From NCBI GenBank assembly GCA_030615855.1, contig JAUWYL010000003.1:2384-66383 (forward strand): 64,000 nucleotides of DNA, in the 5' to 3' direction. Positions 23,532-54,339 of the stretch are shown here, in pieces. Each line of letters starts with the position of its first letter. The first letter of the stretch is position 1. The notes beneath the pieces were generated by a model that was given only the letters and a program-made list of their open reading frames with translations, made no database searches and was not told the origin of the DNA. The stretch comes from a bacterium. GTDB lineage: Bacteria; UBP18; UBA7526. Both the position numbers and the translations under genes were made by a program.

Positions 23532-26360
23532 TCACTTCAGTATTTCCTTCGCGGCCCAAACCACGGGTTTGAAATAGAACCTTACCATCTTCTTCAAGGC
23601 TTCTTTGTTCCTTATAAAGTTAGCAACTGGTGGGCTAATTCTGTTATAGAAGGAAATGAAGGCTCTGCCTGCTCTATTGGGCAAAAGATATCTATCCCTG
23701 AATTCACAGAGAATTTTCTCTTCCTCTGCCATCGGTGTTCCATAGGCGGCAGTAGCGATGAGGCAGCCGCCTCCGCCACCTCCTCCGCCTCCGCCTCCGG
23801 CAGGGGCGGCGATGGTGGTGAATTGATAGTAGGAACCACCATTATTATCTGTGGTCTGGTTCTCAACTGTGTCGCTTGAGGTAACCTGATAGTAGTATAG
23901 GGTCGAGGAACTTAAATTAGAGAGGGTAACGGAGTGAGAAGTGGTCTGGGTGGGATCCTGAGTAGTGGAACCAGGGGGAGTGGTAGTTCCATGCTTCACG
24001 ATACTATCACTCGCTTCATCTGTGGTCCAGGTGATGGTGCAGGTAGTGGAACCAGGAGAGGCGCTGACATTAGTTATTACGGGGTCCTGAGCATCTATGG
24101 TAGCGGTGTCGGTTCTCTCTCCAGGAGGGCTGGCATCAGTATAGGTAGCGGTTATGGTATCTCCGTGGGCTACCTGTAATTCTCCGGTACCCGGAGCCTC
24201 CGTAGTCAGGGTTACTGAGCCTTTGAAGCAATTTGTAGTCCCTCCCGTCTCTTCTAGGATTATGGTCTCCGAATCACCAGTAAGAAAACTGGTCATAACT
24301 ACTTCATCAGTGGTAAAACCAATGTCTGGGGTAGTATCTAAATTAGAATCCCAGAGGGTGATGTTTACTTTGGCAGAACCATTATAAACCCCGGCATCTA
24401 AATTGATTAAACCAGTAGGAACAGGTATATGGAAAGGGGTCTCGGGGTCACCGAAGAGGTTGAGAGCAAAGTAGCACCACCTTATCGCTCCTGTGCTGTC
24501 TACAGATCCATCGTTATCTTCTTTTGAATCTTGGTTAATCCTGCCCAGATTGGTTATTCCCTCATCGAATAAAGCATCCCAGAACTGGCGGTCGAACCTC
24601 TGAGAGGCTCCATTGGTGCTTCCCTGGACATACCAGCCATACCTTGAATTCCCCACAAAGGCGAAGGCACCATTGGCTTCGGTGGTGAAGTGTTCCAGGA
24701 TAGAGTCATAATTATAATAATAACTACTGCTGGTACTACGATTGTCGAAGGCTCCGCAGTAACAGCCCTGGGTATAGCCAAAGAAGTAATCGGTATTGGT
24801 CAAGGCATCGACATCCGCGTTGTACATCTTCATATCATAGTTTACATTAGCATGGCCCAGATGGTTTATAACGTGAAGGCCATTATTGATATATCCGGTG
24901 AGGGTGCTCTTCGACCAAAAAGCATCGTAATCATAGAGGGTATTGAGATCGCTGAAGAAGGAACAGTCAGTGAAGCCTTTGGTGGTATAGTAATTAATGG
25001 AGCCAGTTCGAACCTCTTCTTTATAATCCCTTCCCCAGGTTGGGTAACTATCCAGTTTTTCAGCGACCATATAAGCGGTGTGGAGATAATCAGTAGTAGC
25101 ATCCTCATAGGCCAAGGTCTTCTTGACGAAGTTGGAGAGTTCTGTAGTAGAATCAACGGGCGCTCTTCCCACATAGACCTCAGCGTAGAGGTCGATTTCT
25201 CCCCCGTCTACGCCATCGTTCGATTCCCCATATATTCCATCAGCATCGTTGTCAAACGTTCCATCGAGACAGGCATAGTACATATCGGCCGGAATATCGT
25301 TGTCTGCTGGTGTAGGAGGAGAACTTGACACATAGCCATAGAATCCACGATGGGGAATGATGGGTTCTGCCTCCCTCTCGCCATCGGCACTGCCACCTCC
25401 GTCACCGTCCCCAACCAAGAGGATATAATCGGTAGCCCAACCACCTTCAACCACAGGTTTATTGGCATCGAAGATGAAGTTTCGAATCTTGGTCTGATTG
25501 TCCGTTCCTCCATCAGGACGGGTTCCGCTATAGTTGGCATATATCCATTCTGTGGTTACGATATTGGTAGTGATTCCGCGATTGTTCTTACTCTGAGTTA
25601 AATCCTGGAGATCATAGGTTCCGGAGTAGTTCTTGAAAGTATCATTGGTAATGATGACATAATCGTAGGGACCTCCTGACAAGAGAGGGCCACCGTCTAA
25701 GGCGGTCTTAATGGCCCGGGAGTAGCTCTTTGTATCTTGAGGATTATTTACTATCTTCCCGATTACTCTTTCATCCTTGGCTAAACCACGGTATAAGGGA
25801 GGAGCAGTTATTTCGCGGACGGGAATAGTCTCTACCTCAATGGTCATATTTTTATAATAGGAGAGCCTTTTCTCTTGAGGGATATATTCCATAGGATGGA
25901 GGTTGACGGGTAGGATGCGATAACCCCTCTTATTCTGTACGGACTTTGGAGTGTGGAGTTTGCCCGGGAAAGGATTCCTGGATTGATATATTCTCTTATC
26001 CGGTAGAGTCTTAGATACTTTCCCTCTATAACTCAAGGGCACCGGCCTCTGTCCCGGTTCGACGTTATAGGTGCCGGAGAGTTCTATCTTCTGTGCAGGA
26101 ATAATATTTATTCCCTTGACCTTTTGGCCAAAGGGGATGAGGACTTTAACTGTCTTTATGGGAAGGACGGGCTCTCCAGGCTCGCCTATAGTGGATGAGC
26201 CCTTCATACTTATCCTGTGGTATTCACCAACCCTGTTAATCTGGGGAGAGGGGAAGGTTATTTCTATTCTGATGGAATTATTCCTTGCCTGCAAATAATA
26301 AGTTCCACTACTTAGAAGTAGCAGACTGATAATTATTACTAGGATGTTAACTATTTTCAC
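23532..26360 (-). CDS. C25 (gingipain-like) cysteine peptidase with propeptide-like N-domain, FN3/Ig-like domains and CFIATAAY-type C-terminal sorting domain
   Basis: Signal peptide. Candidate catalytic pair in HVINHLGHANV and YTQGCYCGAFD (His-Gly ... Gln-x-Cys). FN3-like segment. G11 linker followed by CLIATAAYG...FRDRYLL...SPPVANFIRNKEALK. Confidence 0.6.
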   Translation of the reverse strand: MKIVNILVIIISLLLLSSGTYYLQARNNSIRIEITFPSPQINRVGEYHRISMKGSSTIGEPGEPVLPIKTVKVLIPFGQKVKGINIIPAQKIELSGTYNVEPGQRPVPLSYRGKVSKTLPDKRIYQSRNPFPGKLHTPKSVQNKRGYRILPVNLHPMEYIPQEKRLSYYKNMTIEVETIPVREITAPPLYRGLAKDERVIGKIVNNPQDTKSYSRAIKTALDGGPLLSGGPYDYVIITNDTFKNYSGTYDLQDLTQSKNNRGITTNIVTTEWIYANYSGTRPDGGTDNQTKIRNFIFDANKPVVEGGWATDYILLVGDGDGGGSADGEREAEPIIPHRGFYGYVSSSPPTPADNDIPADMYYACLDGTFDNDADGIYGESNDGVDGGEIDLYAEVYVGRAPVDSTTELSNFVKKTLAYEDATTDYLHTAYMVAEKLDSYPTWGRDYKEEVRTGSINYYTTKGFTDCSFFSDLNTLYDYDAFWSKSTLTGYINNGLHVINHLGHANVNYDMKMYNADVDALTNTDYFFGYTQGCYCGAFDNRSTSSSYYYNYDSILEHFTTEANGAFAFVGNSRYGWYVQGSTNGASQRFDRQFWDALFDEGITNLGRINQDSKEDNDGSVDSTGAIRWCYFALNLFGDPETPFHIPVPTGLINLDAGVYNGSAKVNITLWDSNLDTTPDIGFTTDEVVMTSFLTGDSETIILEETGGTTNCFKGSVTLTTEAPGTGELQVAHGDTITATYTDASPPGERTDTATIDAQDPVITNVSASPGSTTCTITWTTDEASDSIVKHGTTTPPGSTTQDPTQTTSHSVTLSNLSSSTLYYYQVTSSDTVENQTTDNNGGSYYQFTTIAAPAGGGGGGGGGGGCLIATAAYGTPMAEEEKILCEFRDRYLLPNRAGRAFISFYNRISPPVANFIRNKEALKKMVRFYFKPVVWAAKEILK

Positions 26361-26364
26361 CTTG

Positions 26365-27033
26365 TTACTTCTCCTTTACTGGATAGGTCGCGATGGCCTG
26401 TGGGTTTTCCACCATCTTCTTAATCCTTTCTCTATCCTCTGGTTTTCCTCTAAATAACGTCGGCTTTGAAGCAGAAATTGTGGTTACCTCTATCTTTATG
26501 CTCTCATAATAAGAAAGTTCTCTTTTTCCCGGAATATATTTTACAGGATGAAGATTGAGAAGAAGTATTTTATATCCTCTCATACTCTGGATTGACTTAT
26601 TAGAATATAACCTGCCCGGAAAGGGATGATTAGAACTATAGATTTTATCTTTGAGAAAAGGAAGGGGCACTTTCCCTCGATATCTTAAGGGAACTGGTCT
26701 TTGACCGGGTTCTACCAGATATTTTCCCTTTAAAATCCTTTCCTTTTTAGAAGATACCTTTATTCTCTTCACTTCCTGGCCAAAGGGAATTAGTATCTTG
26801 ATCGTCTTTACTGGTAATACTGGTTCTCCCGGCTGGCCAAGACTGGGCATCCCTTTTATAGTCACCCGGTGATATTCCCTGACCTCAGTAATCGTGGGGG
26901 AGGGGAAGTCTATCTCGATTCTAATACCATGGTTTCTGATTAATAAAGAATGAAGACCACTTCCCAGAAATATTATACTGACCATGGCTACTATACCGAT
27001 TTTCCTCATCTCAAACTCCCCCCTTTCCCTCAC
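26365..27033 (-). CDS. stand-alone paralogue of the peptidase propeptide-like N-domain
   Basis: 222 aa with signal peptide. Aligns along its whole length with residues ~20-200 of the 942-aa peptidase (e.g. IRIEIDFPSPTITEVREYHRVTIKG vs IRIEITFPSPQINRVGEYHRISMKG; EPGQRPVPLRYRGKV vs EPGQRPVPLSYRGKV). Confidence 0.5.
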   Translation of the reverse strand: MRERGEFEMRKIGIVAMVSIIFLGSGLHSLLIRNHGIRIEIDFPSPTITEVREYHRVTIKGMPSLGQPGEPVLPVKTIKILIPFGQEVKRIKVSSKKERILKGKYLVEPGQRPVPLRYRGKVPLPFLKDKIYSSNHPFPGRLYSNKSIQSMRGYKILLLNLHPVKYIPGKRELSYYESIKIEVTTISASKPTLFRGKPEDRERIKKMVENPQAIATYPVKEK

Positions 27034-27038: not shown

Positions 27039-27953
27039 TTACATTACTCTCCAGTATTTTATCTCTAAACTTTTGCCTTGCCTCTCTAAGATGGTCTTTA
27101 TTCTCTTCCTCGTCTCTCCCAAGGCCCCTTGAGAAAAGATAGAGAAGGAGTTGCTCTTCACAGTAATGAGAGGGCTAATCTTATTATAGAGTCTATCAAC
27201 TATTCCGAAGACTTCCTTTAGGTCTGTAATCTTCTCAAAAGGGCGATCCTCCCGATATTTTACAATCTCTTGGGCCAAACCCTCATCAATATCAGAATGG
27301 AGGGCCTGAAGAACAATGGAAGGGGCGGTATTGATATTCACCTTACCATCCCCATAGACCGTAAGATAGGAATCCAGGGAGCCTCTTTCCTTTTCTTTTC
27401 CATAGAAGACTTCGTCATTGAAATCTTTTAGGAGGAAGAGTTCATCTATTGTGTTCAGAGGGCCGTTCTTACAAGGGTAGGGGTTTTCCAGATTAGAGTA
27501 ATAATCATCCTCTGTCCCAAAATCCCTCACTTCATCATCCTCATCAAGCCAGTCGCAGATTATATCGACAAGCTCCTTATCGATCTCAAGGACCTCAAAT
27601 AGCCTCTCTAACATTACCTTCTTTTTCTTATCAACCTTACCTTCCTTACCCAAAAGGGAGTTGATATTTATCTTACCACACTCATCTATAATGTGAAAAG
27701 TTATCGCTCCTTCCTCCATAGCAACCGGTGGCTTGGCTAAAGCCCAATCCTCATCCAAGGAGTCACAACTTAAGTCATCATCATCCCTTAAGAGGAGATA
27801 GGCAAAGTTAATCCCAGAATTCGCCAGATAATAAGATTTGAGGCTATCCCGATAATTTCCCGAGATCTCTGCCTCCACTCTCATGAGATAGTTAAACTCC
27901 AAGACCAAAACCGCTAAGATTGTAATAACCACCAGGGTGAGAACTAAGGCCAT
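27039..27953 (-). CDS. gspK: type II secretion minor pseudopilin GspK
   Basis: Prepilin-like TM segment MALVLTLVVITILAVLVLEFNYL, then a GspK-like periplasmic domain. Start placed at Met30 of the tracked ORF, downstream of the caccgattc tandem repeat. Confidence 0.65.
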   Translation of the reverse strand: MALVLTLVVITILAVLVLEFNYLMRVEAEISGNYRDSLKSYYLANSGINFAYLLLRDDDDLSCDSLDEDWALAKPPVAMEEGAITFHIIDECGKININSLLGKEGKVDKKKKVMLERLFEVLEIDKELVDIICDWLDEDDEVRDFGTEDDYYSNLENPYPCKNGPLNTIDELFLLKDFNDEVFYGKEKERGSLDSYLTVYGDGKVNINTAPSIVLQALHSDIDEGLAQEIVKYREDRPFEKITDLKEVFGIVDRLYNKISPLITVKSNSFSIFSQGALGETRKRIKTILERQGKSLEIKYWRVM

Positions 27954-27969
27954 CCCTCTTTGAGAATTA

Positions 27970-28003
27970 ATCGGTGAATCGGGGAATCGGTGAATCGGTG
28001 ATT
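27970..28003. repeat. tandem repeat (unit ~9 bp, atcggtgaa / caccgattc) in the gspJ-gspK spacer
   Basis: atcggtgaatcggggaatcggtgaatcggtgatt read directly. Confidence 0.7.
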
Positions 28004-28054
28004 TTCCCCGTTTCTCCCTTTCTCCCTGTCTCCGTTTCATAACCCACTCTCACT

Positions 28055-28690
28055 TCATTCTTTTACTGTCTCACTCTTTCCTAAGGGGATAAAAGCCACA
28101 GTGGAAAGCTCCTTTTCTGAGAATTTCAAGGTAACCTTAACCGCCTGGGGCAGGCAGGATTCTTCTTTGCTATCCCACTCATCACGCCATTCTTCCCCAT
28201 CATAATACTTAAACTCCAAACCCTCTAAGCCTTCTATTAGATTCTCTTTCTCTCCTCCCTCAAGAACATCATCATCCGGCGTTCCATCCTCCCTGCGCCA
28301 TAGAGAAAGGTTCTTCCCCTCTTCCTCCGGTTCTGTGAAGTAGCCGATCTCTACCAGATCATACTCCTTGCTATCTTTAAATATTCGCTCATGAGAAGAG
28401 GAGATAAAGTCTATCTTTCCTTCCTCTCCGGCAAACATCACATCCTCACTATCTTCTGAAAAGAAAGAAGAGGTAATTTCATCATTCATCCTGCTTAAGG
28501 TGAGTCTTACCATAGAGAAGGCATCCATCTTTTTCCGGGTATAATTCATAGTATCGATGCTTGAGGCATAGGAAGCGTAGATAATGGTGAGGATGAGGCT
28601 AACGATGGCCACGGCAATTAATATCTCAACCAAAGTGAAACCATTGCGGGTGAGCCGGTGAGAAAGTGAGAAAGTGAGCTTTTTACTCAT
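28055..28690 (-). CDS. gspJ: type II secretion minor pseudopilin GspJ
   Basis: Prepilin N-terminus ...RNGFTLVEILIAVAIVSLILTIIYASY (G/FTLxE cleavage and methylation motif). Probable start at MSKK. Confidence 0.65.
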   Translation of the reverse strand: MSKKLTFSLSHRLTRNGFTLVEILIAVAIVSLILTIIYASYASSIDTMNYTRKKMDAFSMVRLTLSRMNDEITSSFFSEDSEDVMFAGEEGKIDFISSSHERIFKDSKEYDLVEIGYFTEPEEEGKNLSLWRREDGTPDDDVLEGGEKENLIEGLEGLEFKYYDGEEWRDEWDSKEESCLPQAVKVTLKFSEKELSTVAFIPLGKSETVKE

Positions 28691-28734
28691 TTTTACACAC
28701 CTGCCTACTTTCACACCTGCCTGCTTTCTCCATT

Positions 28735-29097
28735 TTATTCACGTTTGGCAAGATAAGTAACTACTTCAAGGTTCTTCTCATCCCAGGAGATGGTCAAGGT
28801 CACCTTCCTCAAATCTTCCATAGGAGTCTCGGCCACTCTTTCTCTCCAAGTAAAACCAGGGTACTCCTCTCCAAAGTCCCCTTCTTCTCCTCCTACCTCA
28901 GGGAATCCCTCTAATTCTATCTCAGCCATCTTTCCCTGAGCAAGCAAGGTAGCTAAGGAAAAGTCCTGGGACTCGTTAGCCATACTTATTCCCAGACCAT
29001 AGGAATGGAGGATAACTACTAAAGCAATAGCGATAATGGCTATCGCGATCATCACCTCAATCAGGGTGAAGCCTTTCTTCTTCCACATATCCTTCAT
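28735..29097 (-). CDS. gspI: type II secretion minor pseudopilin GspI
   Basis: MKDMWKKKGFTLIEVMIAIAIIAIALVVIL prepilin leader and N-terminal helix. 120 aa. Confidence 0.7.
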   Translation of the reverse strand: MKDMWKKKGFTLIEVMIAIAIIAIALVVILHSYGLGISMANESQDFSLATLLAQGKMAEIELEGFPEVGGEEGDFGEEYPGFTWRERVAETPMEDLRKVTLTISWDEKNLEVVTYLAKRE

Positions 29098-29575
29098 AGA
29101 CCATAACCTGGCCCATGGTCCCCTTGACTAATAGGGTCTGGACCTCTTCCTTTTCATTCTGAAGATGGATGATGGATTTGGTAACATAGCCTTTGGGAAA
29201 AAAGAGGGTAAAGGCCTGACCATTATTTATCTTTCCCTCTGGAGTGACGACATCCAGGAATTTGATCCCTTCCGGAAGGGCCTCCCTCCTTCCCAAGACG
29301 GTCTTCAACTCCTCGAACTCTCCCTCCTCATTCTCCTCTTCTATCCAGTACTCATTCTCATCTAAGTTATAACAGAGACGCAAGCGTTTTCCTGTAGTTG
29401 CTGAGCGATCGTGAAGATAGCGGATAGTCCCTATCAGTCGCCGGCTTGTGCTCTTCAGATAACCTCCGGATAAGAAAGCCTCCATCCTGGGAAAGGCAAT
29501 GACCAAAACAGCACTCAAAACAATGAGAACGATGATTAACTCTATTAAAGTGAAGCCACAAGCTCCAAGCCTCAA
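29057..29575 (-). CDS. gspH: type II secretion minor pseudopilin GspH
   Basis: Prepilin N-terminus ...LRLGACGFTLIELIIVLIVLSAVLV. Most plausible start is the TTG at 29575, giving leader MRLGACG. The tracked ORF runs further upstream through the cctgtagc tandem repeat and into gspG. Confidence 0.55.
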   Translation of the reverse strand: MRLGACGFTLIELIIVLIVLSAVLVIAFPRMEAFLSGGYLKSTSRRLIGTIRYLHDRSATTGKRLRLCYNLDENEYWIEEENEEGEFEELKTVLGRREALPEGIKFLDVVTPEGKINNGQAFTLFFPKGYVTKSIIHLQNEKEEVQTLLVKGTMGQVMVYEGYVEEERLHPD

Positions 29576-29590
29576 GCCACAAGCTTCTTT

Positions 29591-29638
29591 GTAGCCTGGA
29601 GCCTGGAGCCTGTAACCTGTAGCCTGTAGCCTGTAGCC
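29591..29638. repeat. tandem 8-bp repeat (cctgtagc / cctggagc variants, ~6 copies) between gspG and gspH
   Basis: gtagcctggagcctggagcctgtaacctgtagcctgtagcctgtagcc read directly. Confidence 0.75.
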
Positions 29639-29639
29639 T

Positions 29640-30080
29640 TTACTTCTCCAGTGCCCAGCTCTGGATATCGGCATCATTCCCTTCCCCGCCTTCGGCTCCA
29701 TCTGCACCATAGGAGACAATATCATACTCCTTATTGTGCACCCCAGGTGAGATATAGACATAGGGGTTCCCCCAGGGATCGAAGGGAATCTCTTTGGCCT
29801 CTAAGTAGCCCCCCTCCTTCCAGTTCTTCGTCTCTCTTCCTGTAGTGGGCTTCTCAACCAGGGCCTTCAAGCTCTGCTCTGTTGAAGGATAGAAACCATT
29901 ATCTAACTTAAAGAGCTTCAGAGCTCCCTCAAAGTTCTTGATCTGAATGATGGTTGCCGTCCTCTTTGCCTGCTCCTCCCGGCCCATGAATTTAGGCACT
30001 ACAATGGTGGCCAGGATAGCCAGGATGACGATGACGATCATCAATTCAATCAGAGTAAAACCTCTTTCATTTTTTCTCAT
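29640..30080 (-). CDS. gspG: type II secretion major pseudopilin GspG
   Basis: MRKNERGFTLIELMIVIVILAILATIVVPKF, followed by the conserved GspG globular domain. 146 aa. Confidence 0.85.
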   Translation of the reverse strand: MRKNERGFTLIELMIVIVILAILATIVVPKFMGREEQAKRTATIIQIKNFEGALKLFKLDNGFYPSTEQSLKALVEKPTTGRETKNWKEGGYLEAKEIPFDPWGNPYVYISPGVHNKEYDIVSYGADGAEGGEGNDADIQSWALEK

Positions 30081-31645: not shown

Positions 31646-32065
31646 CTACCTTTTGGGTTGAGGTAGCATAGATTTTACCCAAGCGAAAAAGCGCTCAGTA
31701 TGCTTAATTATCTCTATTGCTTCTTTCTGGGTAAATAACCGCTCTTCATATTCTATGAGATTTTTCTTAGCGATGACCTTCCGCAGATGTTGAGCATTTC
31801 TCCTGGCATCAGGGGTTTTTATTGATTCGATTAATAAGCGTACTGCTTCTCTATGATCTGGGCTGGTACTTCTCACCTTGCGATAAAAAGTAAGCAGGGC
31901 ATCGTTAGCAGATATAACGCAGTGTACTGCTTCCAACCCTGCTGAATTCCAGTTGCCTTTTTCATAAGCCAATCTCATAGCCCGATGGAAATCCCGAGAT
32001 TTCCTAAAGTAATTTAGATACTCGCCAGGTTCAATCTTTTTGAATTTAGTCTTCTTAGCTATCAA
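31646..32065 (-). CDS. HEPN-domain protein (HepT-like toxin candidate)
   Basis: 139 aa, all-helical. R-x4-6-H motif in RRNAQHLRK. Overlaps the upstream nucleotidyltransferase gene by 11 bp. Confidence 0.6.
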   Translation of the reverse strand: MIAKKTKFKKIEPGEYLNYFRKSRDFHRAMRLAYEKGNWNSAGLEAVHCVISANDALLTFYRKVRSTSPDHREAVRLLIESIKTPDARRNAQHLRKVIAKKNLIEYEERLFTQKEAIEIIKHTERFFAWVKSMLPQPKR

Positions 32066-42656: not shown

Positions 42657-42699
42657 TCTCTCCTACGGCTTCCATATGACACGAATCTTTATTATGAGG

Positions 42700-45020: not shown

Positions 45021-45085
45021 CTATTCATCTTTCCCTTATCTGTGATCTGTGTCCATCTGTAATAAATCTGTGCCAATCTGTGTTC

Positions 45086-46021: not shown

Positions 46022-49000
46022 TTATTTTCGTATTAACTTATTCGCTCCCCAAACCAATGGCTTCAATCCTGCTCTAACTACTGCCTTGAGTGGTTCTTTA
46101 TCTCGGATGAAGTCCGCAATCGGTGGCGAAATTTTACAGTAAGTAAGAACAAATGCCCGACCTAAGGGATTAGTGAGCAGATGCTGGTCTCGGAACTGCC
46201 GCAAAGCCATTATTTCAGGAGGACAGTTTAAAAAGTTGGTTAGTTGGTTAGTTTTATCCGTGCTAATCCGTGATTTTAATCCGTGCCTATCCGTGCAACT
46301 GCTGTAAGCAGCAGTAGCAATAAAGCATCCTCCACTCCCTCCACCACTCAGAGACTTGCCCACTGTGACCGTAGTCGTTGCCTCAGTGCTCGAGTTTCCA
46401 TCTTCAGCAATGGCCTTGATATAAATGGTGTAGTAACCTATAGGAACAGAGTCGCCAGAACTGTTCTTCCCATCCCATTTTGTAGAGAAACTATCTGCAA
46501 TATAATACTTATCTTCCCCTAAGGTTTTTACCACCCTTCCCCTTCCATCGAGGGCCTGAATGGTGACCTCAGACTCCTTATTAAGAGTGAAGGAGATCTT
46601 GGTATGTCTCCGATTGAGGTCGCTTCCATCCGATAGGAAGGGATCTTCAGAGACTCCTAAACCCCTGATTCCCACTCCAGAAGGCATATCCGCATTATTT
46701 ACCTTCCCTCTGGTAGGAGAGGAACAGACGCTCCAGTCACTATTTGCATTGGTATCACTTGAATCAGCGTCACGGGCGATGGAGTCATTAGCATCGACTG
46801 TAGTGCTATTAAAACAGTCAGATTCTGCCAGAGAAGCCCCAGCAATCTTCCATTGTTCAGGATCAGCATCTACTAATGCTTGGACATCTGCTTCCTCACC
46901 AGAACCCCACGTCCCACTTTGATCTGCCCAGCAAACAGCATCCTCAATATTCCCCAATCCATCCTTGAAGATTACCTGTTCATCTGTAGAGGTCAACCCA
47001 GTATCATGGGCCCAGATATTGATGATTCCATCCGAACCAGCAGTGAGTTCATCCATCCAGTAACTCATCCCATTAGTAAAGATCTCAATATTTCCCCTTC
47101 CTGTAGGAGCCCCGGTCCGTGAACCAGTTCCTGTGCAGTAGTAGGGAATACTTTTAGCCGACAGACGATCCAAACATTCAGTAGTCGGATGGTTATAGGG
47201 GTTGGAGCCGGTAGAGATGACGGCCTTATCCGGATAGACATAGGTGAGGAAGTTACTTGAGGTGGCATATCTAGCGCCATGATGGCCTACTTTTAAGATA
47301 TCGCTCGTTAATCCTATCCCATACTTACTGATCAGGTTCTCCTCCACCTCGAATCGGGGATCATTATCATGGCAGGCAGAGGATTCCGCATCACCAGTGA
47401 GCATAAAGGAGACATTCCCGTAGGTAAGGTAAATAACAATGGAACTATTATTCTTATAATCGGTTCCTTCCTCTTCAGTTGCTCCTGGCCAAGGACTGGT
47501 AGCATGGGCATTGAGCACCTTGGCAGTAATGTTATAGTCTTCATCCCAGGTATAGGTCTGGCCAACGGTGGGAACGATACCCGGAATATCATTGACATCT
47601 GAGATGGTTGGGTAACCCAACTCATTCTTTACCGCGGTAACAAAGGCATCGGTATAATAACTCTCTGGCTGGCCAGAGAGCCAGATGGCCTCTACTGTCT
47701 TATTATTTAAAACATCTGTCAGGTCACCATAATGGTCGCTATCCGCATGGGTAGCGACCATACGATGGACAGTAGTAGAGACACCCACTTTATCAAGATA
47801 GGAATCAACGATTTCCTTATTTGGGTTTCCTCCATCGATTAAGATATTTTCTCCTCCCGGAGTCTGAACAAGAATGGAGTCCCCTTGTCCTACATCAATG
47901 AAGGTGACGGTCATGCAGCCTGAGGCTGGCTGGAGGACTAAATATTCCCCGGTCTTTATTGTTGTTCCCTTGGCGATGGTCTTTATTGTTCCATCATCTT
48001 CAAAGTAGCATTCCCCGATATCTACTCCGCTTCCATCGCTGGTTCCATCAGCCTCACAATATAACTCTACCCAGTCCTTGCTGCCTGAAGCATTAAACGA
48101 TACCTCATTTATCTTAATGCTTACATCCAATTCTAAGGAAGAGGGGTTCTTCTTTCCCTTGGTAGGGGTAGTAATAAGATTCCAATCGCTCTCCTTATGG
48201 GTATCCGTTGCTCCAGAAGCATTATCTCTTCCTAAAGACTTTCCCTTTGCCCCACTCGTCCAGTTGGCAGACTGGCCTTCCTGAGTCTCATTACTGTAGG
48301 TATCCTCATCCCCGGCATCGCCAATCCATTGACGGGGACTGAGACTATCATCCGCTATCCTGTTGAAGGCCGTACGCTGGGTGCCTGCCCAGGTGCCATC
48401 CCTCTTGGCCAATGATACAGCATCGATGATGTTTCCCGAAGGATCCTCAAGGATAATGACATTATCCGTTCCGGTAAGACCAGAATCCGTGGAATAGAAG
48501 TCACGATAGCCATTCCCATTGGTATCGCTATCCACCTCATCCGCAGTAGGGTCCTCCGGGTCATCCCTGAGACGAAGGACGATATACTCATCATCAGACA
48601 TAGTATAATCTGGAAAGGTCTTGATATAGGCGCTTCTTTCCAAGACTCTCCAGGAACCGATATTCTGGGTTGTTCCCGAGACATTATGGAACTCAATCCA
48701 CTCTGGGGTATCCTTGGTAGCAATCTCATTAATCAATATACTGCCTGGGTCTCCCTCATCTGGAGCAGTAGTATTTGTTGCTTTCGGTGACCCTCTTTCT
48801 GTGGCCCCGGCATCCCAGTTAGTAGTTCCTTCTTCATTGGCAGTATACCAGTTCTTGGCCTGCGTACCATCCCCGGGGGTGCTGCGACGCTCCATAGAAT
48901 ATTTCTTATCATTGTCACCTGCTAAAGGTGTTGAACTATCACCAGCGGTATCATAAAGGATATCGCCATCCGTGTAGAGTTTTATCTGAAGAGTGCTATT

Positions 49001-50290
49001 GGATAATACTACATCAGTATCTATTACATTTGGAGTAACACTATCTTCTATTCTGGAGTTAGCTGCATCAAAGTTAGAAATGAGGAAGTAATCATCACCA
49101 GCCGGATCACCCGTGGCCTTTATGGTTCCAGAAAGGGTGACTTGCATAGGAGCTTCAGCTCCAGCAGAAAATTTAGTGAGATACCAGTTGGTCAAATCAA
49201 TGTCTGAACTGCTGGTATTCCTCAGTTCAATCCATTCATCGGAACTGCTAAGCGTACTCCCTGTCCACATCAATTCGTTGATCACTACCGGCGCTCCTCC
49301 GTCATAATAGAGAGCAGTATCTGTGCGGTCAATAGAGGGGGCTGGTTCGGCATCGGCATAGGTAGCGGTAATGGTAGAGCCATCGGCCACCTTAATCACA
49401 TTATTGGCATCATTACTAGCAGTTGTAGAAACTCCTAACTCTGGCTCTGGAGATTGAATGTTAAATATTCCGGTATCGTTTCCCGTTTCGGTTAGGGTAA
49501 TACTTATCGTTACTGGGTCAGAGGTAGTGGAGATTATGCTGACCGTAAACGACTGCTTACTTCCCGAATCGGTATTGCGATCATTATCAGTGACCGTAAT
49601 ATCGGAAGTTTGAGAAGTGCTGCTAAAGATTCCTCTATCAATATCTATGCTCCCCACATAGTTGCCGCTTCCATTTGCTGCTCCCGGAGTTCCCAATTCT
49701 GTAGCCCCGGAATCCCAGTTCAGGGAGGTCGTAGCAGTATACCAGTTCTCTGATACCGTTCCATCACCCGGTGTAGTATTACGAGACATAGAGTATTTAT
49801 TGGCATTATCCCCAGCAAATGGGGTTCCACTAGCATCATCAGCGGTATCGATGATCGTAGTGGTTTCACCTGCATAGGGGCCATCATAGAGTTTTATCTG
49901 TAGAGCAGTATTGGCTAAAGAGACATCAGTATCTACCACATCTGGTATGACGTTCAACTTTGAACTACCACTGGTCTCGGCATAATTGGAGATGAGGAAG
50001 TATCCATTGGCTGGGATGGTGCCAGAGGAGATGGTGAGCATCAACGTCTCTGCGCCACTACTATACTTAGTAATATCCCAATTACTCAGATTGATGGGTG
50101 AACTGGTCATATTCCTCAGTTCGATCCATTCATCATAAGTACTGGCATTACTCCCCATCCACATCAACTCATTGATCACCACATCCCCGGGATCTGCTCC
50201 CCAGGCTCGCCCGCTCCCACAGAGAGCTATACTAATAATAAGGAATAGCATTAATGTTAAGTTCTTAGAAAATATTTTTCTTATCTTCAT
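46022..50290 (-). CDS. giant surface protein: three lamin-tail domains + ComEC-like metallo-beta-lactamase nuclease domain + Ig/FlgD-like domain + Gly-linker + CFIATAAY C-terminal sorting domain
   Basis: Lamin-tail-domain motifs VVINELMWMGSNASTYDEWIELRN, VVINELMWTGSTLSSSDEWIELRN, ILINEIATKDTPEWIEFHN. MBL segment MTVTFIDVGQGDSILVQTPGGENILIDGG ... VATHADSDHYGDL (ComEC C-terminal-domain-like). C-terminus GGGSGGCFIATAAYSS[repeat insert]NFLNCPPEIMALRQFRDQHLL...SPPIADFIRDKEPLK. Confidence 0.7.
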   Translation of the reverse strand: MKIRKIFSKNLTLMLFLIISIALCGSGRAWGADPGDVVINELMWMGSNASTYDEWIELRNMTSSPINLSNWDITKYSSGAETLMLTISSGTIPANGYFLISNYAETSGSSKLNVIPDVVDTDVSLANTALQIKLYDGPYAGETTTIIDTADDASGTPFAGDNANKYSMSRNTTPGDGTVSENWYTATTSLNWDSGATELGTPGAANGSGNYVGSIDIDRGIFSSTSQTSDITVTDNDRNTDSGSKQSFTVSIISTTSDPVTISITLTETGNDTGIFNIQSPEPELGVSTTASNDANNVIKVADGSTITATYADAEPAPSIDRTDTALYYDGGAPVVINELMWTGSTLSSSDEWIELRNTSSSDIDLTNWYLTKFSAGAEAPMQVTLSGTIKATGDPAGDDYFLISNFDAANSRIEDSVTPNVIDTDVVLSNSTLQIKLYTDGDILYDTAGDSSTPLAGDNDKKYSMERRSTPGDGTQAKNWYTANEEGTTNWDAGATERGSPKATNTTAPDEGDPGSILINEIATKDTPEWIEFHNVSGTTQNIGSWRVLERSAYIKTFPDYTMSDDEYIVLRLRDDPEDPTADEVDSDTNGNGYRDFYSTDSGLTGTDNVIILEDPSGNIIDAVSLAKRDGTWAGTQRTAFNRIADDSLSPRQWIGDAGDEDTYSNETQEGQSANWTSGAKGKSLGRDNASGATDTHKESDWNLITTPTKGKKNPSSLELDVSIKINEVSFNASGSKDWVELYCEADGTSDGSGVDIGECYFEDDGTIKTIAKGTTIKTGEYLVLQPASGCMTVTFIDVGQGDSILVQTPGGENILIDGGNPNKEIVDSYLDKVGVSTTVHRMVATHADSDHYGDLTDVLNNKTVEAIWLSGQPESYYTDAFVTAVKNELGYPTISDVNDIPGIVPTVGQTYTWDEDYNITAKVLNAHATSPWPGATEEEGTDYKNNSSIVIYLTYGNVSFMLTGDAESSACHDNDPRFEVEENLISKYGIGLTSDILKVGHHGARYATSSNFLTYVYPDKAVISTGSNPYNHPTTECLDRLSAKSIPYYCTGTGSRTGAPTGRGNIEIFTNGMSYWMDELTAGSDGIINIWAHDTGLTSTDEQVIFKDGLGNIEDAVCWADQSGTWGSGEEADVQALVDADPEQWKIAGASLAESDCFNSTTVDANDSIARDADSSDTNANSDWSVCSSPTRGKVNNADMPSGVGIRGLGVSEDPFLSDGSDLNRRHTKISFTLNKESEVTIQALDGRGRVVKTLGEDKYYIADSFSTKWDGKNSSGDSVPIGYYTIYIKAIAEDGNSSTEATTTVTVGKSLSGGGSGGCFIATAAYSSCTDRHGLKSRISTDKTNQLTNFLNCPPEIMALRQFRDQHLLTNPLGRAFVLTYCKISPPIADFIRDKEPLKAVVRAGLKPLVWGANKLIRK
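46252..46292. repeat. atccgtg / cacggat-family tandem repeat inserted in-frame within the C-terminal sorting domain of the 1422-aa protein
   Basis: tatccgtgctaatccgtgattttaatccgtgcctatccgtg encodes CTDRHGLKSRISTDK between AAYSS and NFLNCPPE. The paralogous site of the 1094-aa protein (51261-51304) carries the same family. Confidence 0.7.
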
Positions 50291-50307: not shown

Positions 50308-50874
50308 TTAATTCCTTCCCTTCATGATCTTCTTCAGCCGATTCCAGACTCTTAAATCTTCCGCTTCATCACAGATCTTCATTGCCCATTCCTCAAGGTA
50401 TTTAACATCCAGGCTTCTCCCATGACGGATAAATATGCTTTCTACGTCAATCATATCTCGGCCTCTGCCTGGGATTAACTTGAGAAGAATTAAATCTTCG
50501 GGAGTAGGGATATAAATCTGCCGTCCCATAATTTTGGCTTTTCTTTTCCTTTGGAAGGCCGATTTTTCTAATGCTATTGATAGCTTGATGAAATCGATAT
50601 GAAGTCTACTGTGGTATAGACGGAAGACCCCCCGGGTATCAAATGTCTCTTGGACCACTTCCCTGTCGAATTTGAAGCCTTTCCTTTGAGCTGTGGTTAG
50701 GAATGCCTCTAATTTTTTCCTGTTTATTAAGATGATGAAATCCGCATCATTGGTTACTCTTGGTTCGCCAATAATACCGACCGCCAAACCTCCTACCAGA
50801 AGATAAGGGGTGTTTGTTACCTTTAACAACCCCAGGGCTTTATGAAAGACTACGGGAAATCTATTGGCTTTCAT
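50308..50874 (-). CDS. minimal nucleotidyltransferase-fold protein (GG...D.D motif), function unknown
   Basis: LLVGGLAVGIIGEPRVTNDADFIILI fits the Pol-beta superfamily hG[GS] ... DxD pattern. Paralogue of 55828..56313. Lies 17 nt upstream of the giant nuclease-like gene. Confidence 0.5.
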   Translation of the reverse strand: MKANRFPVVFHKALGLLKVTNTPYLLVGGLAVGIIGEPRVTNDADFIILINRKKLEAFLTTAQRKGFKFDREVVQETFDTRGVFRLYHSRLHIDFIKLSIALEKSAFQRKRKAKIMGRQIYIPTPEDLILLKLIPGRGRDMIDVESIFIRHGRSLDVKYLEEWAMKICDEAEDLRVWNRLKKIMKGRN

Positions 50875-51083
50875 TCCTTCTTCATTTTTAACCCCAGCTT
50901 CGCACAGACTGGAAGGTGGGAAGCAAAATTCAAGGAATCTATTAGTTCTGAGTCTAATAGAAATTCCATGATCTCGGCACTCTCTTTAATGGTAAGTTTC
51001 CTCAGGGTTTCCCTTCTCTCTTTTTCGCTCTCTCTTCTATACTTTTCCGGATTCTTAATCATCGCTTCTTCCTTCTTTAACAA
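50871..51083 (-). CDS. possible small partner protein of the nucleotidyltransferase (70 aa)
   Basis: ATGA overlap with the NTase start. Charged, helical. Overlaps the last 28 bp of the upstream giant gene. Purely positional evidence. Confidence 0.3.
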   Translation of the reverse strand: MLKKEEAMIKNPEKYRRESEKERRETLRKLTIKESAEIMEFLLDSELIDSLNFASHLPVCAKLGLKMKKE

Positions 51084-54000
51084 TTCTCTTTGCTCCCCAA
51101 ACGATCGGTTTCAGATAGAATCTCACCATTGCTTTCAGTGGTTCTTTATCTGAAATAAAGCGAGCAACCGGTGGACTAAAGCGACAGTAGAACCTCACAA
51201 ATGCTTTTCCCAGGGAATTAGTCAAGAGATGCTCATCCCGAAATCTCTGCAAAACAATAATCTGTGATCTGTGTGAATCCGTAATAAATCTGTGTGAATC
51301 CGTGCCGCTGCTATAAGCAGCGGTAGCGATGAAGCATCCCCACTTCTCTGAGGTGCTCTTCGCCTCTTCCTTGGCAGCTGCCGGGGTGGTAATGGTAACC
51401 ACGGGAGTGCTCACCTCGGTGTCCGGACTTGATGAATATACCCCCCACAACTGTATGTAGTAGGTCGTTCCTCCTGAGAGACCAGTAATGGTGGTGGAGG
51501 TCGTCGCCCTGGTAGCCAGATCAACATCATTACTATCATCCCAGTAACTGGTTGCCTTGTTTTCCACTTCAGTTCGATTGGTCCCATAATAGATGCGGTA
51601 GCGGAGAAAGTCCTTATCTGAAGGAGTGAAGGGCGTCCAGGTCAACTTGCTACTTGAGGATTTCGATTCGCTCTCCTGGACATCGGCCAAACCCACAGAA
51701 ACAGAAGCAGTACCAGAAGGAGAAGTCGTCTCATTACCAGCGTTATCCATTGCCCATATTTTAGCATAGTAGATGTTAGGTGAGGTTAATCCTGTAACGA
51801 TAGTTGAAGAGGTATCTATATCTGTCTCTTCCTTTTTAGTGGCTCCTTCTGGCGAACCCGTATTGTCCTTATCCTGCACCTTTGTCTGATCCTTCCCATA
51901 CCAGATTTCATAGTGGCTGAAGTAGCTCTCTGTGCAGGCCGTCCAGGAGAAAGTAATACTCGTTGAAGTAGCAGAACTTGCCTTGAAATCCGCCAGACCA
52001 CTGGGAACCACATTATCTATGCCAAAAGGAGTACCAGGAGAAGAAGCCGTATCCCCCATATAACCATAACTACCATCATCCGCGCCATCATTGGCCTTCA
52101 TCCTGAAGTAAACCGTGTCATCTTCAGTAGTGGGAAGATCAGTTGCCGTAGCCCAGGTGATGGTCTTCTCGCCTGGAGTGCCGATAGATTCCTCGGAGGC
52201 TGGGTCAGTAGAAGCGGTATGCCAATCTATTTCATCTCCGGTGGTAGAATACTCTGGATACCCAGTGCAGGAGTGACTATCGGCATCTATCAAGGTATAG
52301 GAAATCTCCCAGTCTCCTCTTTTCCAACTGGGAACCGGTGACTCAGTAATGTTTATTAAAGGAAGATTATTGTCGGTTACCTCAATACTAATACTGATAG
52401 CCGAGGTATAACCTGCACTTGAGTCGGCATCAATCTGTATGGTTTCCCCGGTATCATAATATATGCCGCTATAACTGGCCACCCCACTCACAACGTCTTC
52501 TGTAAGGGCGTCATTAGGTAATAAGGCACCAGCACCGGCGTGAAGTGCTAAGATAACGGTACCTATGGCAGCGGGGGTCACATTACCATAGGTATCCTTT
52601 ACGCTCACCTTTGGCTGGGTAGCAAAGGGGAAACCGACGATGGCCGCATCCGATGGTGGAGTGGTAAAGTCTAATTTATTGGGATTATCAGGATCGACAG
52701 CAATATTCGTTGAGGTCCCATTAATTGCTCCATCATCGGCCTTAATCCAGGGGGTCTCTCCTGCGTTATAGAGAGTGAAACCAGATACCGTTGCCACACC
52801 ATTCGCGAAGGTCTGGTTCCCATCAGCCGGCTTGGTCGGGTCATTAACGCCTATGGCAGTAGCGTTCCAGGTCCAGGTAATGTAATGAGAACCAGTATAA
52901 TCGGTGACCGTAGTATCGTCTTGCCTCTGAGCAGTAACCGTAACTGAGAAAGTAGTTCCCGCAGTCTCAGTTCCAGAATGCTCGGTCACTACACTGAACT
53001 TGGTGGCCAACCAACCACCTGGGGGTTCTCCGTCAGAAAGCCAGGCAGCACCCAAAATCAATCTTTCGCCAGTAGCCGCATGTCGGGTTAGTCCTATAGC
53101 TATCCCGCCATTAGTAGTCCCTTCTCCAGCGCCGATCACATAGGAGTGGCTGATTTTTGTCCAGTCAGCACCATCTAAATCGGTGACACCCGACTCATCT
53201 ATACCACCAGCATGCTCAACCCCTACTTTTACCTTACCAGTTCCTTTTGCCCAGACCACCACATAATAGGTTTTGCCCACTTCTAAATCTTTACCTAACT
53301 GCTTTAGATAACGCTCATCAGAATATGGTTCATGGGCAAAAGAAGCCTCCCCGACTAAAACCTCATCTGGGTCAGTAGTTCTTTCACCTCTATTGCCCCA
53401 GGTGTATTCATCAGGATCACTACCGGTAATATCATCAAAAAATTCGTTGTATAGGTAATTCTCTCCTGCTTCAGGATGGGTCTGGAAGGTCTTGATATCC
53501 CCATATGCATGATCGCTGTCATATTCTACAACGCCTCTAAACTGATATTTGGTCTTTTTACTAAAACTCGGAGTAGCGGTATGTGAGCCAGCTACACCAT
53601 AAGGTGTGTAGGTTGTCTCATTATCGGTTATGCTGCCTGAACTTTCCCCCCATTGAAAGTAGACATCAACAGAAATCTCCTCCCCCATGGTAAAATCACA
53701 GTTAAGGGTAGCGGTAGTAGTCCCGATGCTTGAGGCATCCTGAGTGGTGACTGTAGGATAAGGGTAGGTGCCTGTAGTAGTCCAGATAATTTCGTCCGTA
53801 ATGACCTTTCCCTCTGACCTATTGCCGATACACTTAAATACCACATTATTGCTTTCACTTATGGCAGTCAATGCCCCAGCCACCAGGGACCCATAGGTAC
53901 CATCAGTGGCTGAGTAATAAGTCTGATCAACAGGAAGAGCACCGACATCGATTACCGTTGTCAGATCAGAGTAGGCACCCCCATCAATACTATATTGGAA

Positions 54001-54339
54001 CTTTACATCACCAGTAGTAGTACCAGCACGCATCACTTGGAAGTCAAAATTAGTAAGGGTTAATCCCCGGAAATCAAAGGTATCGGTTGTATAGGTAGAT
54101 TCTCCTGTACCGGCTTTGATCATTGCTGCATTGGTGCAGTAGCTAATGTTGTATGTTACGAAGTTACCATCAGCGGTCCAGCCCGACGGCCAATCGGGAG
54201 GATCTATACTTTCAAAATCCTCTGTATAGCCAGGCGAATGCGGTATAATGAGGGCCTGGGCACCCATACCCCAGCCCAGAAGCAACCCAATAGAGAGGGA
54301 TATCAATATTAAGTTCTGGGAAAGTCTTCTTTTCTTCAT
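51055..54339 (-). CDS. large surface protein with fibronectin-type-III-like domains and CFIATAAY C-terminal sorting domain
   Basis: Signal peptide. FN3-like units (e.g. ...YYAKIWAMDNAGNETTSPSG). C-terminus WGCFIATAAYSSGTDSHRFITDSHRSQIIVLQRFRDEHLL...SPPVARFISDKEPLK. TTGACA-17-TATACT promoter upstream. Confidence 0.65.
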   Translation of the reverse strand: MKKRRLSQNLILISLSIGLLLGWGMGAQALIIPHSPGYTEDFESIDPPDWPSGWTADGNFVTYNISYCTNAAMIKAGTGESTYTTDTFDFRGLTLTNFDFQVMRAGTTTGDVKFQYSIDGGAYSDLTTVIDVGALPVDQTYYSATDGTYGSLVAGALTAISESNNVVFKCIGNRSEGKVITDEIIWTTTGTYPYPTVTTQDASSIGTTTATLNCDFTMGEEISVDVYFQWGESSGSITDNETTYTPYGVAGSHTATPSFSKKTKYQFRGVVEYDSDHAYGDIKTFQTHPEAGENYLYNEFFDDITGSDPDEYTWGNRGERTTDPDEVLVGEASFAHEPYSDERYLKQLGKDLEVGKTYYVVVWAKGTGKVKVGVEHAGGIDESGVTDLDGADWTKISHSYVIGAGEGTTNGGIAIGLTRHAATGERLILGAAWLSDGEPPGGWLATKFSVVTEHSGTETAGTTFSVTVTAQRQDDTTVTDYTGSHYITWTWNATAIGVNDPTKPADGNQTFANGVATVSGFTLYNAGETPWIKADDGAINGTSTNIAVDPDNPNKLDFTTPPSDAAIVGFPFATQPKVSVKDTYGNVTPAAIGTVILALHAGAGALLPNDALTEDVVSGVASYSGIYYDTGETIQIDADSSAGYTSAISISIEVTDNNLPLINITESPVPSWKRGDWEISYTLIDADSHSCTGYPEYSTTGDEIDWHTASTDPASEESIGTPGEKTITWATATDLPTTEDDTVYFRMKANDGADDGSYGYMGDTASSPGTPFGIDNVVPSGLADFKASSATSTSITFSWTACTESYFSHYEIWYGKDQTKVQDKDNTGSPEGATKKEETDIDTSSTIVTGLTSPNIYYAKIWAMDNAGNETTSPSGTASVSVGLADVQESESKSSSSKLTWTPFTPSDKDFLRYRIYYGTNRTEVENKATSYWDDSNDVDLATRATTSTTITGLSGGTTYYIQLWGVYSSSPDTEVSTPVVTITTPAAAKEEAKSTSEKWGCFIATAAYSSGTDSHRFITDSHRSQIIVLQRFRDEHLLTNSLGKAFVRFYCRFSPPVARFISDKEPLKAMVRFYLKPIVWGAKRIVKEGRSDD

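Follow-up and report, generated by a model that had tools for sequence, protein, structure and literature searches.

Three giant, putatively exported proteins encoded within a 64,000-nucleotide stretch of a UBP18 bacterium (lineage UBA7526; GenBank assembly GCA_030615855.1, contig JAUWYL010000003.1, positions 2,384 to 66,383 of the forward strand; hereafter the window) end in one and the same domain, which is the CFI-box-CTERM domain of NCBIfam (NF041770). One of the three, a cysteine peptidase of the C25 (gingipain/PorU) family, is encoded inside the operon of a type II secretion system (T2SS), and two β-barrels resembling the outer-membrane proteins PorV and FadL are encoded in the same window (Table 1). 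As discussed below, the short form of the CFI-box possibly acts as a handle by which cargo of the T2SS is docked or retained at the cell surface, with the PorV-like barrels as the most plausible receptor and the CFI-tagged C25 peptidase as a PorU-like processing enzyme; the probability of this reading is put at about 0.4.

CFI-box-CTERM is one of the larger families of C-terminal tags on prokaryotic surface proteins, with about 18,000 clusters distributed over many uncultivated phyla. Full-text literature searches returned no paper on CFI-box-CTERM or NF041770, and neither a function nor a partner or mechanism was described in the papers searched. Candidate partners emerge from the window and its relatives, namely the T2SS, the PDZ domain of GspC, a PorV-like barrel and a CFI-tagged peptidase of clan CD. 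If the proposed docking function is correct, it would explain the surface display of large adhesins, nucleases and proteases in Omnitrophota-like bacteria, and attachment of the PorU/PorV type would not be confined to type IX secretion; if the linkage fails, the window adds three more members to a catalogued domain family.

Three putatively exported proteins with a common C-terminal domain

The tagged proteins are the C25 peptidase, a protein with lamin-tail (LTD) and metallo-β-lactamase (MBL) domains and a protein with FN3 domains, hereafter the LTD-MBL and FN3 proteins. Their translations share the C-terminal pattern C(L/F)IATAAY(G/S)...FRDxxLL...GxAF(I/V)...SPP(V/I)AxFI...KExLK...KPxVW, and each matches the full length of NF041770 (profile positions 1-69 of 69) with scores of 85.1 (C25), 73.4 (LTD-MBL) and 73.5 bits (FN3) against a curated cutoff of 40 bits. 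The three proteins are further members of this curated family, with which they agree in the position of the domain, its start at an invariant Cys and its varied exported cargo, and no difference was found at the family level. A preliminary description of the window had noticed the common domain on the three proteins and had tentatively called it a CFI-box-type C-terminal domain; both the observation and the name are borne out, and Pfam agrees with the N-terminal domains it had read, although no Pfam model covers the CFI-box region itself. When all six frames of the window were searched by hmmsearch with a profile of 15 domain sequences, exactly three copies were found (E 6e-40, 4e-36 and 2e-35), the fourth-ranked match being at E 0.55, and a regular-expression scan gave a concordant result.

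The invariant Cys is followed by Leu-Ile in the C25 copy and by Phe-Ile in the LTD-MBL and FN3 copies, and the latter two contain insertions of 9-24 aa downstream of the motif. From the Cys to the stop codon there are 77 aa (C25), 101 aa (LTD-MBL) or 93 aa (FN3), and the domain itself ends 0-14 aa before the stop codon. The poly-Gly linker reported earlier for all three proteins is present in the C25 peptidase (G11) and the LTD-MBL protein (GGGSGG), but not in the FN3 protein, which instead has ...SEKWG-C. Read by eye, the N-termini of all three resemble signal peptides, in which a basic n-region precedes a hydrophobic core and a site of the AxA type.

Table 1. Genes and domains of the window that bear on the CFI-box (positions counted from the first nucleotide of the window)
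Feature	Position	Strand	Identified by
GspM	20854..21396	-	Pfam/NCBIfam
PilM/GspL fusion	21396..23396	-	Pfam/NCBIfam
C25 (gingipain/PorU-family) cysteine peptidase with its own Propeptide_C25 and a C-terminal CFI-box	23532..26360	-	Pfam, NCBIfam
CFI-box-CTERM copy 1 (CLIATAAYG...KEILK), preceded by G11	23535..23765	-	NF041770, profile and regex scan
Stand-alone Propeptide_C25 protein, directly upstream of the C25-CFI gene	26365..27033	-	Pfam 3.6e-15
GspK	27039..28040	-	Pfam/NCBIfam
GspJ	28055..28714	-	Pfam/NCBIfam
GspI	28735..29097	-	Pfam/NCBIfam
GspH-like	29057..29761	-	Pfam/NCBIfam
GspG	29640..30080	-	Pfam/NCBIfam
GspF	30230..31441	-	Pfam/NCBIfam
ATPase GspE	33333..35120	-	Pfam
Secretin GspD (AMIN, N0, Secretin)	35123..37054	-	Pfam
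GspC with PDZ domain	37245..38087	-	Pfam T2SSC and PDZ_6; NF041515 GspC_delta, 137.6 bits
Second PorV-like barrel, N-terminal ~284 aa of a 644-aa OB-fold/HhH protein (43086..45020)	44169..45020	-	PorV-like profile hmmsearch, E 2e-88, residues 1-284
PorV/FadL-like outer-membrane β-barrel, 287 aa, 72 nt downstream of the LTD-MBL-CFI gene	45086..45949	-	NF033709, AlphaFold2, Foldseek
LTD-MBL protein, putatively exported, 1422 aa: four lamin-tail (LTD) domains, ComEC-like metallo-β-lactamase, FlgD_ig, CFI-box	46022..50290	-	Pfam, NCBIfam
CFI-box-CTERM copy 2 (CFIATAAYS...), 24-aa insertion after the motif	46025..46327	-	NF041770, profile and regex scan
FN3 protein, putatively exported, 1094 aa: fn3 domains, CFI-box	51055..54339	-	Pfam, NCBIfam
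CFI-box-CTERM copy 3 (CFIATAAYS...)	51058..51336	-	NF041770, profile and regex scan

Size, distribution and position of the CFI-box family

An exhaustive hmmsearch found 18,162 CFI-box representatives at 50% identity at E<=1e-3, 7,628 of them at E<=1e-10. More than 3,000 proteins were retrieved in a word-indexed search with a profile of the three window copies, and at least 589 matches were confirmed when one genome for each GTDB species was scanned for the pattern. Genomic neighbourhoods were compared in the best 80 CFI loci from reference genomes (hereafter the 80 CFI loci), whose assembled genomes are labelled Omnitrophota, Chloroflexota/Dehalococcoidia, Nitrospirota, Desulfobacterota, Gamma- and Betaproteobacteria, Planctomycetota, Elusimicrobia, Gemmatimonadota and Saccharibacteria, together with one doubtful Thermoplasmata bin. 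The Thermoplasmata locus (L010), the sole archaeal one, lies on a 2.5-kb contig, and an almost identical CFI sequence is present in an Omnitrophota locus (L015) from the same Guaymas sample series; the contig is likely to be a case of mis-binning, and the occurrence of the CFI-box in archaea is doubtful.

The C-terminal position of the domain, against which internal occurrences elsewhere had been named in advance as the telling evidence, withstood a broad comparison. The CFI-box ends less than 50 aa from the C-terminus in 143 of the 150 best representatives and in 81 of 83 genomic examples, and the non-terminal cases inspected (P0122, P0128, P0234 and P0250) are in-frame fusions of two modules, in which cargo, CFI-box, transmembrane (TM) helix and basic tail are followed by a new signal-peptide-like segment and a second module. 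In these four proteins and in loci L027 and L063, a single open reading frame (ORF) carries a complete module that runs in frame into a signal-peptide- or lipobox-like segment, and the second module of P0122 and P0128 likewise ends in a CFI-box. Such ORFs may represent tandem genes that lack a stop codon between them, or else genuine membrane proteins built of two modules.

The Cys is present in 228 of 228 relatives, and the nine-residue motif CFIATAAYG that it opens is nearly invariant across phyla at a domain identity of 50-60%. Gly or Ser makes up 43% of the 12 residues before the Cys. The domains that precede the CFI-box are highly varied and include InlB-B repeats, PKD, CBM_X2, RCC1, DUF11 and Ig-like domains, lectins, propellers and peptidases of the S8, M4 and M6 families, each of these three peptidase families with two matches among 70 CFI cargo proteins. 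Several CFI loci may occur in one assembled genome (for example L017, L031 and L042 in JBATUN01), and the window holds three unrelated tagged proteins within 31 kb. In two T2SS-linked Omnitrophota proteins, a weak match to ZU5, which is an autoproteolytic domain in eukaryotes, stands just before the CFI-box (residues 1736-1815 in L029 and 432-493 in L052; ~26 bits, cutoff 21).

Predicted fold, and short and long forms

According to structure prediction, the CFI-box folds into a mainly helical module of ~75 aa, carried on a flexible Gly/Ser linker. In the AlphaFold2 model (122 sequences), the linker is disordered, IATAAY forms a short helix and three further helices make up a bundle with a pLDDT of 80-88, and in the 96-aa construct of copy 1 the helices span residues 22-27, 33-46, 50-70 and 74-95. 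A fold search of the domain against the PDB gave nothing better than E=7 and no match to an autoprocessing domain.

Two forms of the domain can be distinguished. The copies in the window are short forms, ~75 aa long, basic and devoid of a TM helix: hydropathy over 17 residues peaks at 0.39-0.76 beyond the domain core, where the threshold used for a TM helix was 2.0, and ~70 aa of amphipathic helices come after the motif, with no Arg/Lys cluster at the C-terminal end. Short forms are also found in some Dehalococcoidia and in one Saccharibacteria bin. In the long form, which accounts for 129 of 314 non-redundant examples (~40%), the bundle is followed by a TM helix and an Arg/Lys-rich tail, and the distance from the motif to the TM helix is ~65 aa. 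The typical endings are ...NTTxxEK, TM helix and RRRGRGPEYT in Dehalococcoidia, and ...(V/I)(K/R)YP, TM helix and RRR in Proteobacteria and Nitrospirota. Because a TM helix with an Arg-rich tail should be oriented according to the positive-inside rule, the CFI domain of long forms would be situated on the outer side of the cytoplasmic membrane. The core of the short forms is more basic than that of the long forms by ~3 charge units (+4.3, n=185, versus +1.2, n=129), and their last helix is amphipathic (hydrophobic moment, muH, 1.4-1.6; mean hydropathy ~0.2).

In long forms from Proteobacteria, Nitrospirota and Desulfobacterota (for example L009, L019, L033, L045, L066 and L077), the conserved sequence (V/I)(Y/F)x(V/I)(K/R)(Y/H)P stands right before the TM helix and Arg cluster, an arrangement that, taken by itself, resembles a classical tripartite sorting signal added to the end of the CFI domain.

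Tripartite sorting signals, such as LPXTG, PEP-CTERM, GlyGly-CTERM and MYXO-CTERM, consist of a motif, a TM segment and an Arg/Lys cluster (bioRxiv 10.1101/2023.06.07.544157). The CFI-box of the window is not a signal of this kind, and the earlier comparison with PEP-CTERM and GlyGly-CTERM tags fails on the missing TM helix and Arg cluster and on the predicted helical fold of ~75 aa. Nor is it a C-terminal domain of a type IX secretion system (T9SS), to which it had also been likened: no model for the T9SS domain matched, and the cargo domain of the T9SS is a β-sandwich whereas the AlphaFold2 model of the CFI-box is all-helical.

The type II secretion operon, the tagged peptidase and the barrels

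The preliminary description had seen no cognate machinery in the window. Candidates are nevertheless at hand, in the form of a complete T2SS, two PorV-like barrels and a peptidase of the PorU family type. Pfam and NCBIfam together identify gspC, D, E, F, G, H, I, J, K, L and M between positions 20854 and 38087 on the minus strand, with a weak match for GspH; no prepilin peptidase (GspO) is encoded in the window. The C25-CFI gene sits inside this operon, between gspK and gspL, and the stand-alone Propeptide_C25 protein encoded next to it is a paralog of the N-terminus of the C25 ortholog in the related locus L085.

The C25 protein matches Pfam Peptidase_C25 (4.6e-55) in addition to Propeptide_C25. 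Against the PorU model NF033707 it scores 49.5 bits where the cutoff is 420, so that the likeness to PorU is at the level of the Peptidase_C25 family only. Because the family-invariant motifs NHxGH (residues 499-503) and QGCxxG (residues 531-536) are retained, the peptidase is probably active, to judge from its sequence. A phmmer search of the C25 region against PDB sequences found no match at 1e-3. The closest relatives were found in a hydrocarbon metagenome (L085) and in assembled genomes of Omnitrophota and Desulfobacteria. A CFI-box forms the C-terminus of ~27 of the 120 closest C25 homologs (17 with the strict motif and ~10 divergent Omnitrophota proteins of ~845 aa), and the other C-termini include dockerin, SLH, CARDB or TM tails. 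The CFI-box therefore fills the slot of known surface-attachment modules. A C25 peptidase as a universal neighbour of CFI cargo was ruled out, there being no C25 homolog near the 80 CFI loci.

For the 287-aa barrel encoded downstream of the LTD-MBL-CFI gene, AlphaFold2 predicts a β-barrel with a pLDDT of 90. The best Foldseek matches by TM-score and rmsd are structures of PorV of the T9SS (6h3i_F, with 0.72 and 4.6 Å, and 8gl6_F). The second barrel is a paralog of the first. The protein that contains it (43086..45020) is an unusual fusion, in which the PorV/FadL-like barrel is joined to a C-terminal half with two OB-folds and an HhH (HHH_3, ComEA-like) DNA-binding domain according to Pfam.

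Recurrence of the gene linkages

The linkage of CFI-box genes to T2SS genes recurs outside the window. In eight Omnitrophota or Planctomycetia loci (L002, L007, L029, L041, L043, L052, L056 and L065), a CFI-box gene with variable cargo is followed directly by a gspC homolog, often with further T2SS genes beyond it, and in three other loci (L026, L034 and L072) CFI genes lie within or beside T2SS genes. Unlike in the eight loci, the gene before gspC in the window is not a CFI gene but one encoding a ComEA-like HhH/porin-like protein.

The association of tagged peptidase, secretin and barrel is also found elsewhere. All Omnitrophota-type C25-CFI genes whose context was retrieved (L083, L084, L086 and L087) show the order PilO-like gene, ~170-aa gene, secretin, C25-CFI and ~329-aa PorV-like gene. 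According to Pfam, the ~170-aa protein is T2SSC-like in L083 and L084. The secretin and C25-CFI genes overlap by 14-23 nt in all four loci; between C25-CFI and the ~329-aa gene there is an overlap of 1 nt in three of them and a gap of 2 nt in L087. The ~329-aa protein belongs to the same PorV-like family as the barrels of the window (NF033709, 62.4 bits; PorV-like profile, E<=1e-159). In L085, which is 56-83% identical to the window at the amino acid level, LTD-MBL-CFI, C25-CFI and PorV-like genes are followed by the same HhH genes as in the window. Finally, L088 is an unrelated operon of the T2SS/type IV pilus type, only ~27% identical, which encodes an AMIN protein, a PorV-like protein, a 123-aa protein, a C11 peptidase with a CFI-box (E 5e-30), a HEAT protein and a secretin; thus, a second clan-CD peptidase family bears the CFI-box beside a PorV-like barrel.

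One distant PorV-like barrel, on an 858-kb metagenome contig, is immediately preceded by a gene for a large C25 peptidase without a CFI-box (L127, 5705-10975); found without a search for T9SS genes, it is another PorU/PorV-like pair.

Possible mode of action

In the proposed docking pathway, the N-terminal signal peptides would bring the tagged proteins to the periplasm by the Sec route, and the adjacent T2SS would carry them over the outer membrane. The CFI-box would then retain the cargo at the surface, most plausibly on the neighbouring PorV/FadL-like barrels, and the C25 peptidase, with the same handle and with its gene in the T2SS operon, would be placed to act on CFI cargo tethered beside it, trimming or releasing this cargo at the exposed linker, much as PorU acts with PorV. 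In long forms, the CFI-box may instead serve as a stalk beside a TM anchor.

By analogy, such a mode of action would be most like the T2SS-dependent display of GlyGly-CTERM and MYXO-CTERM proteins, possibly with a part for the PDZ domain of GspC, and like the attachment logic of PorU and PorV in the T9SS. GlyGly-CTERM and MYXO-CTERM, the substrates of rhombosortase and myxosortase, are C-terminal tags of proteins that depend on the T2SS for reaching the surface (PMC6219818; PMC11980579; bioRxiv 10.1101/2023.06.07.544157). Like them, the CFI-box is carried by many unrelated proteins with putative signal peptides and has a Gly-rich run and/or an invariant Cys at its junction with the cargo; the coupling to the T2SS, seen in the window as gene linkage, is a further likeness, and surface retention rather than free release would be expected. 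Unlike them, the CFI-box of the window is not a short tripartite signal for an intramembrane protease but a predicted helical domain, and no gene for a rhombosortase or CPBP protease lies near the CFI-box genes of the window.

The likeness to the T9SS lies in a C-terminal domain of ~70-100 aa on varied cargo, in a C25-family peptidase that bears the same tag as its presumed substrates and in an adjacent gene for a PorV/FadL-like barrel. The two systems differ in several respects beyond the fold of the cargo domain: peptidase and barrel fall far below the cutoffs for PorU and PorV orthologs, the neighbouring translocon is a secretin-based T2SS and not SprA/PorKLMN, and the CFI-box also occurs in bacteria without an outer membrane. 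Genes for the T9SS translocon and motor (SprA/Sov, PorK/L/M/N) are not found among the annotated ORFs of the window.

Cargo selection in the T2SS depends on the PDZ domain of GspC/EpsC, and an Ig-fold determinant has been described in VesB (PMC12369372). The PDZ-bearing gspC directly downstream of a CFI cargo gene in the eight loci described above suggests, from gene order, that the CFI-box may be a portable secretion determinant at the level of a domain. T2SS-like loci have been reported beside giant surface proteins of Omnitrophota (bioRxiv 10.1101/2023.11.21.568195); the main text of that report makes no mention of C25, PorV or secretin.

A more far-reaching version of the docking proposal is distinctly unlikely. 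It would make the genes of the window an undescribed outer-membrane attachment module on the T2SS, in which the PorV-like barrel captures CFI-boxes as they leave the secretin, and a CFI-tethered C25 or C11 peptidase cleaves or transpeptidates at the Gly-rich linker. If true, such a module would be the T2SS counterpart of the PorU/PorV sortase complex of the T9SS, and the cognate machinery for CFI-box-CTERM (>18,000 clusters) in bacteria with an outer membrane.

Several observations weigh against the docking proposal. As regards the receptor, the 287-aa barrel scores 61.7 bits (E 8e-17) against the PorV/PorQ model NF033709, below the cutoff of 90, and its best Foldseek E-value is for FadL (3e-9), better than that for PorV. 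A PorV-like barrel as a universal CFI neighbour was ruled out, none of the 80 CFI loci having a PorV-like gene within 10 kb; in the reverse comparison, a CFI-box was found in none of 80 distant PorV-like loci from metagenomes, where an adjacent C25 gene occurs in one (L127) and a secretin in five. As regards gene order, all genes of the window are on one strand, so that co-orientation in itself is weakly informative, and the four secretin/C25/PorV loci of the Omnitrophota type are orthologous and count as one evolutionary event. As regards processing, Gly precedes the Cys in just 53% of a linker-unbiased set, and thus a strict cleavage-site signature is not seen. Peptidase_C25 and C11 are not among the 25 families listed, of 55 matched, for the 70 CFI cargo proteins, and the clan-CD peptidase may be just another cargo. 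Lastly, the CFI-box is common, in long and short forms, in lineages that have neither an outer membrane nor a T2SS (Dehalococcoidia/Chloroflexota and Saccharibacteria). It is therefore not specific to the T2SS, and docking to the T2SS or to PorV cannot be its general function. Because of the abundance of the domain in Dehalococcoidia and these limits on the linkage, the combination of T2SS, PorV-like barrel and clan-CD peptidase would represent at most a lineage-specific use of the short form.

Alternative explanations

The alternative that survives best, if still a somewhat unlikely one, is that the CFI-box is an autonomous anchor or stalk of the cell envelope that undergoes no processing and acts without a partner, the neighbouring genes for T2SS, PorV-like proteins and peptidase being export route and more cargo. 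The short form would then be an interfacial bundle of basic, amphipathic helices, and the long form a membrane-proximal stalk before a TM anchor. This would accord with the occurrence of the domain with and without an outer membrane and with and without a TM tail, with the more basic character and amphipathic last helix of short forms, and with the interchange of the CFI-box with dockerin, SLH and TM anchors on C25 homologs. An anchor without partners would also agree with the failure of any enzyme family to recur near the 80 CFI loci: BLAST clustering of all their ORFs gave T2SS genes, histidine kinases and ABC ATPases as the only recurrent families, and no candidate sorting enzyme. However, the near-invariance of CFIATAAYG and its Cys exceeds the constraint usual for a generic membrane-binding bundle and suggests a specific partner or chemistry, and the repeated position of CFI-tagged C25 and C11 peptidases beside PorV-like barrels is hard to credit to coincidence.

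It is unlikely that the CFI-box is a classical sorting signal whose enzyme is encoded elsewhere, that is, one cleaved by an unlinked intramembrane protease or transpeptidase of the exosortase, rhombosortase or myxosortase/CPBP type, with subsequent modification of the Cys, for example by lipidation. The '-CTERM' naming in NCBIfam points in this direction, as do the several unrelated tagged cargo proteins per genome, the TM helix and Arg cluster at the end of long forms with (V/I)(K/R)YP before the TM helix in Proteobacteria and Nitrospirota, and the invariant Cys, which is reminiscent of MYXO-, JDVT-, Synerg- and CGP-CTERM (Haft 2023, bioRxiv 10.1101/2023.06.07.544157). The window copies, however, are devoid of the TM helix and basic cluster that hold a substrate at a membrane-embedded active site; even in long forms the motif is not adjacent to the TM helix but lies ~65 aa before it, and the region is a predicted folded domain. 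Moreover, CPBP, rhomboid, exosortase and sortase families are absent from the Pfam and NCBIfam annotation of the window, and a Pfam search of 150 CFI neighbours found none of them and nothing recurrent beyond response regulators.

Self-processing by the CFI-box, through an N-to-S acyl shift at Gly-Cys as in the 'G|CF' junction of Hedgehog proteins and inteins, is highly improbable. The resulting thioester would release the cargo or pass it to a nucleophile of the envelope, and such chemistry would account for the invariant Cys, usually with Gly before it and Phe after it, for the conserved Thr, Tyr, Arg and Asp nearby and for the finding of no external enzyme among CFI neighbours. Against it stand the predicted all-helical fold, which is not that of Hint domains, the lack of a conserved His in the alignment, a residue other than Gly at position -1 in 47% of the unbiased set and the lack of a structural match to autoprocessing domains.

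There is next to no chance that CFI cargo is processed by the two multi-TM proteins (57132..58391 and 58489..59814) that the preliminary description had singled out as the only nearby candidates. Both are membrane proteins encoded within 5 kb of the FN3-CFI gene, and the first has a YdjM domain, a family whose annotation is that of putative membrane hydrolases. The second, however, is a transporter of the TctA tricarboxylate type, neither has an NCBIfam match, homologs occur in 0 of the 80 CFI loci, and neither YdjM nor TctA appears in the Pfam tables of five loci retrieved via CFI-tagged peptidases or the PorV-like gene.

Other features of the window

The window is a one-directional chromosomal gene array in which every real gene is on the minus strand. 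Its first 16 kb encode housekeeping functions (MlaE, Alr, DnaB, L9, YchF, H+-PPase, L25, Prs, GlmU and IspE).

A toxin-antitoxin-like pair of HEPN (31646..32065) and nucleotidyltransferase (32055..32678) genes is inserted in the T2SS operon between gspE and gspF, and HicAB and HEPN/nucleotidyltransferase pairs are found at the equivalent place of the T2SS-like operon of L088. Upstream of gspC, ~600 nt (38088..38695) contain no ORF of >=100 aa, and this gap could hold the promoter of the operon.

Exported nucleic-acid-binding proteins are crowded around the T2SS (38696..45949, 59818..60942, 61444..61956 and 63377..63958, and also the LTD-MBL protein, 46022..50290). They contain ComEA-like HHH_3 repeats (up to five per protein), OB-folds (tRNA_anti-codon), a LysM domain and a porin-like C-terminus, and the metallo-β-lactamase of the LTD-MBL protein is of the ComEC type (TIGR00361, 95 bits). 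The array is conserved in L085, and together with the LTD-MBL protein it looks like a system for the capture, degradation or uptake of extracellular DNA. Interspersed among the CFI-box genes are two DUF6036 nucleotidyltransferase-like genes (50308..50874 and 55828..56313) and a ParB-like gene (ParB_N and HTH_ParB, 54488..55273).

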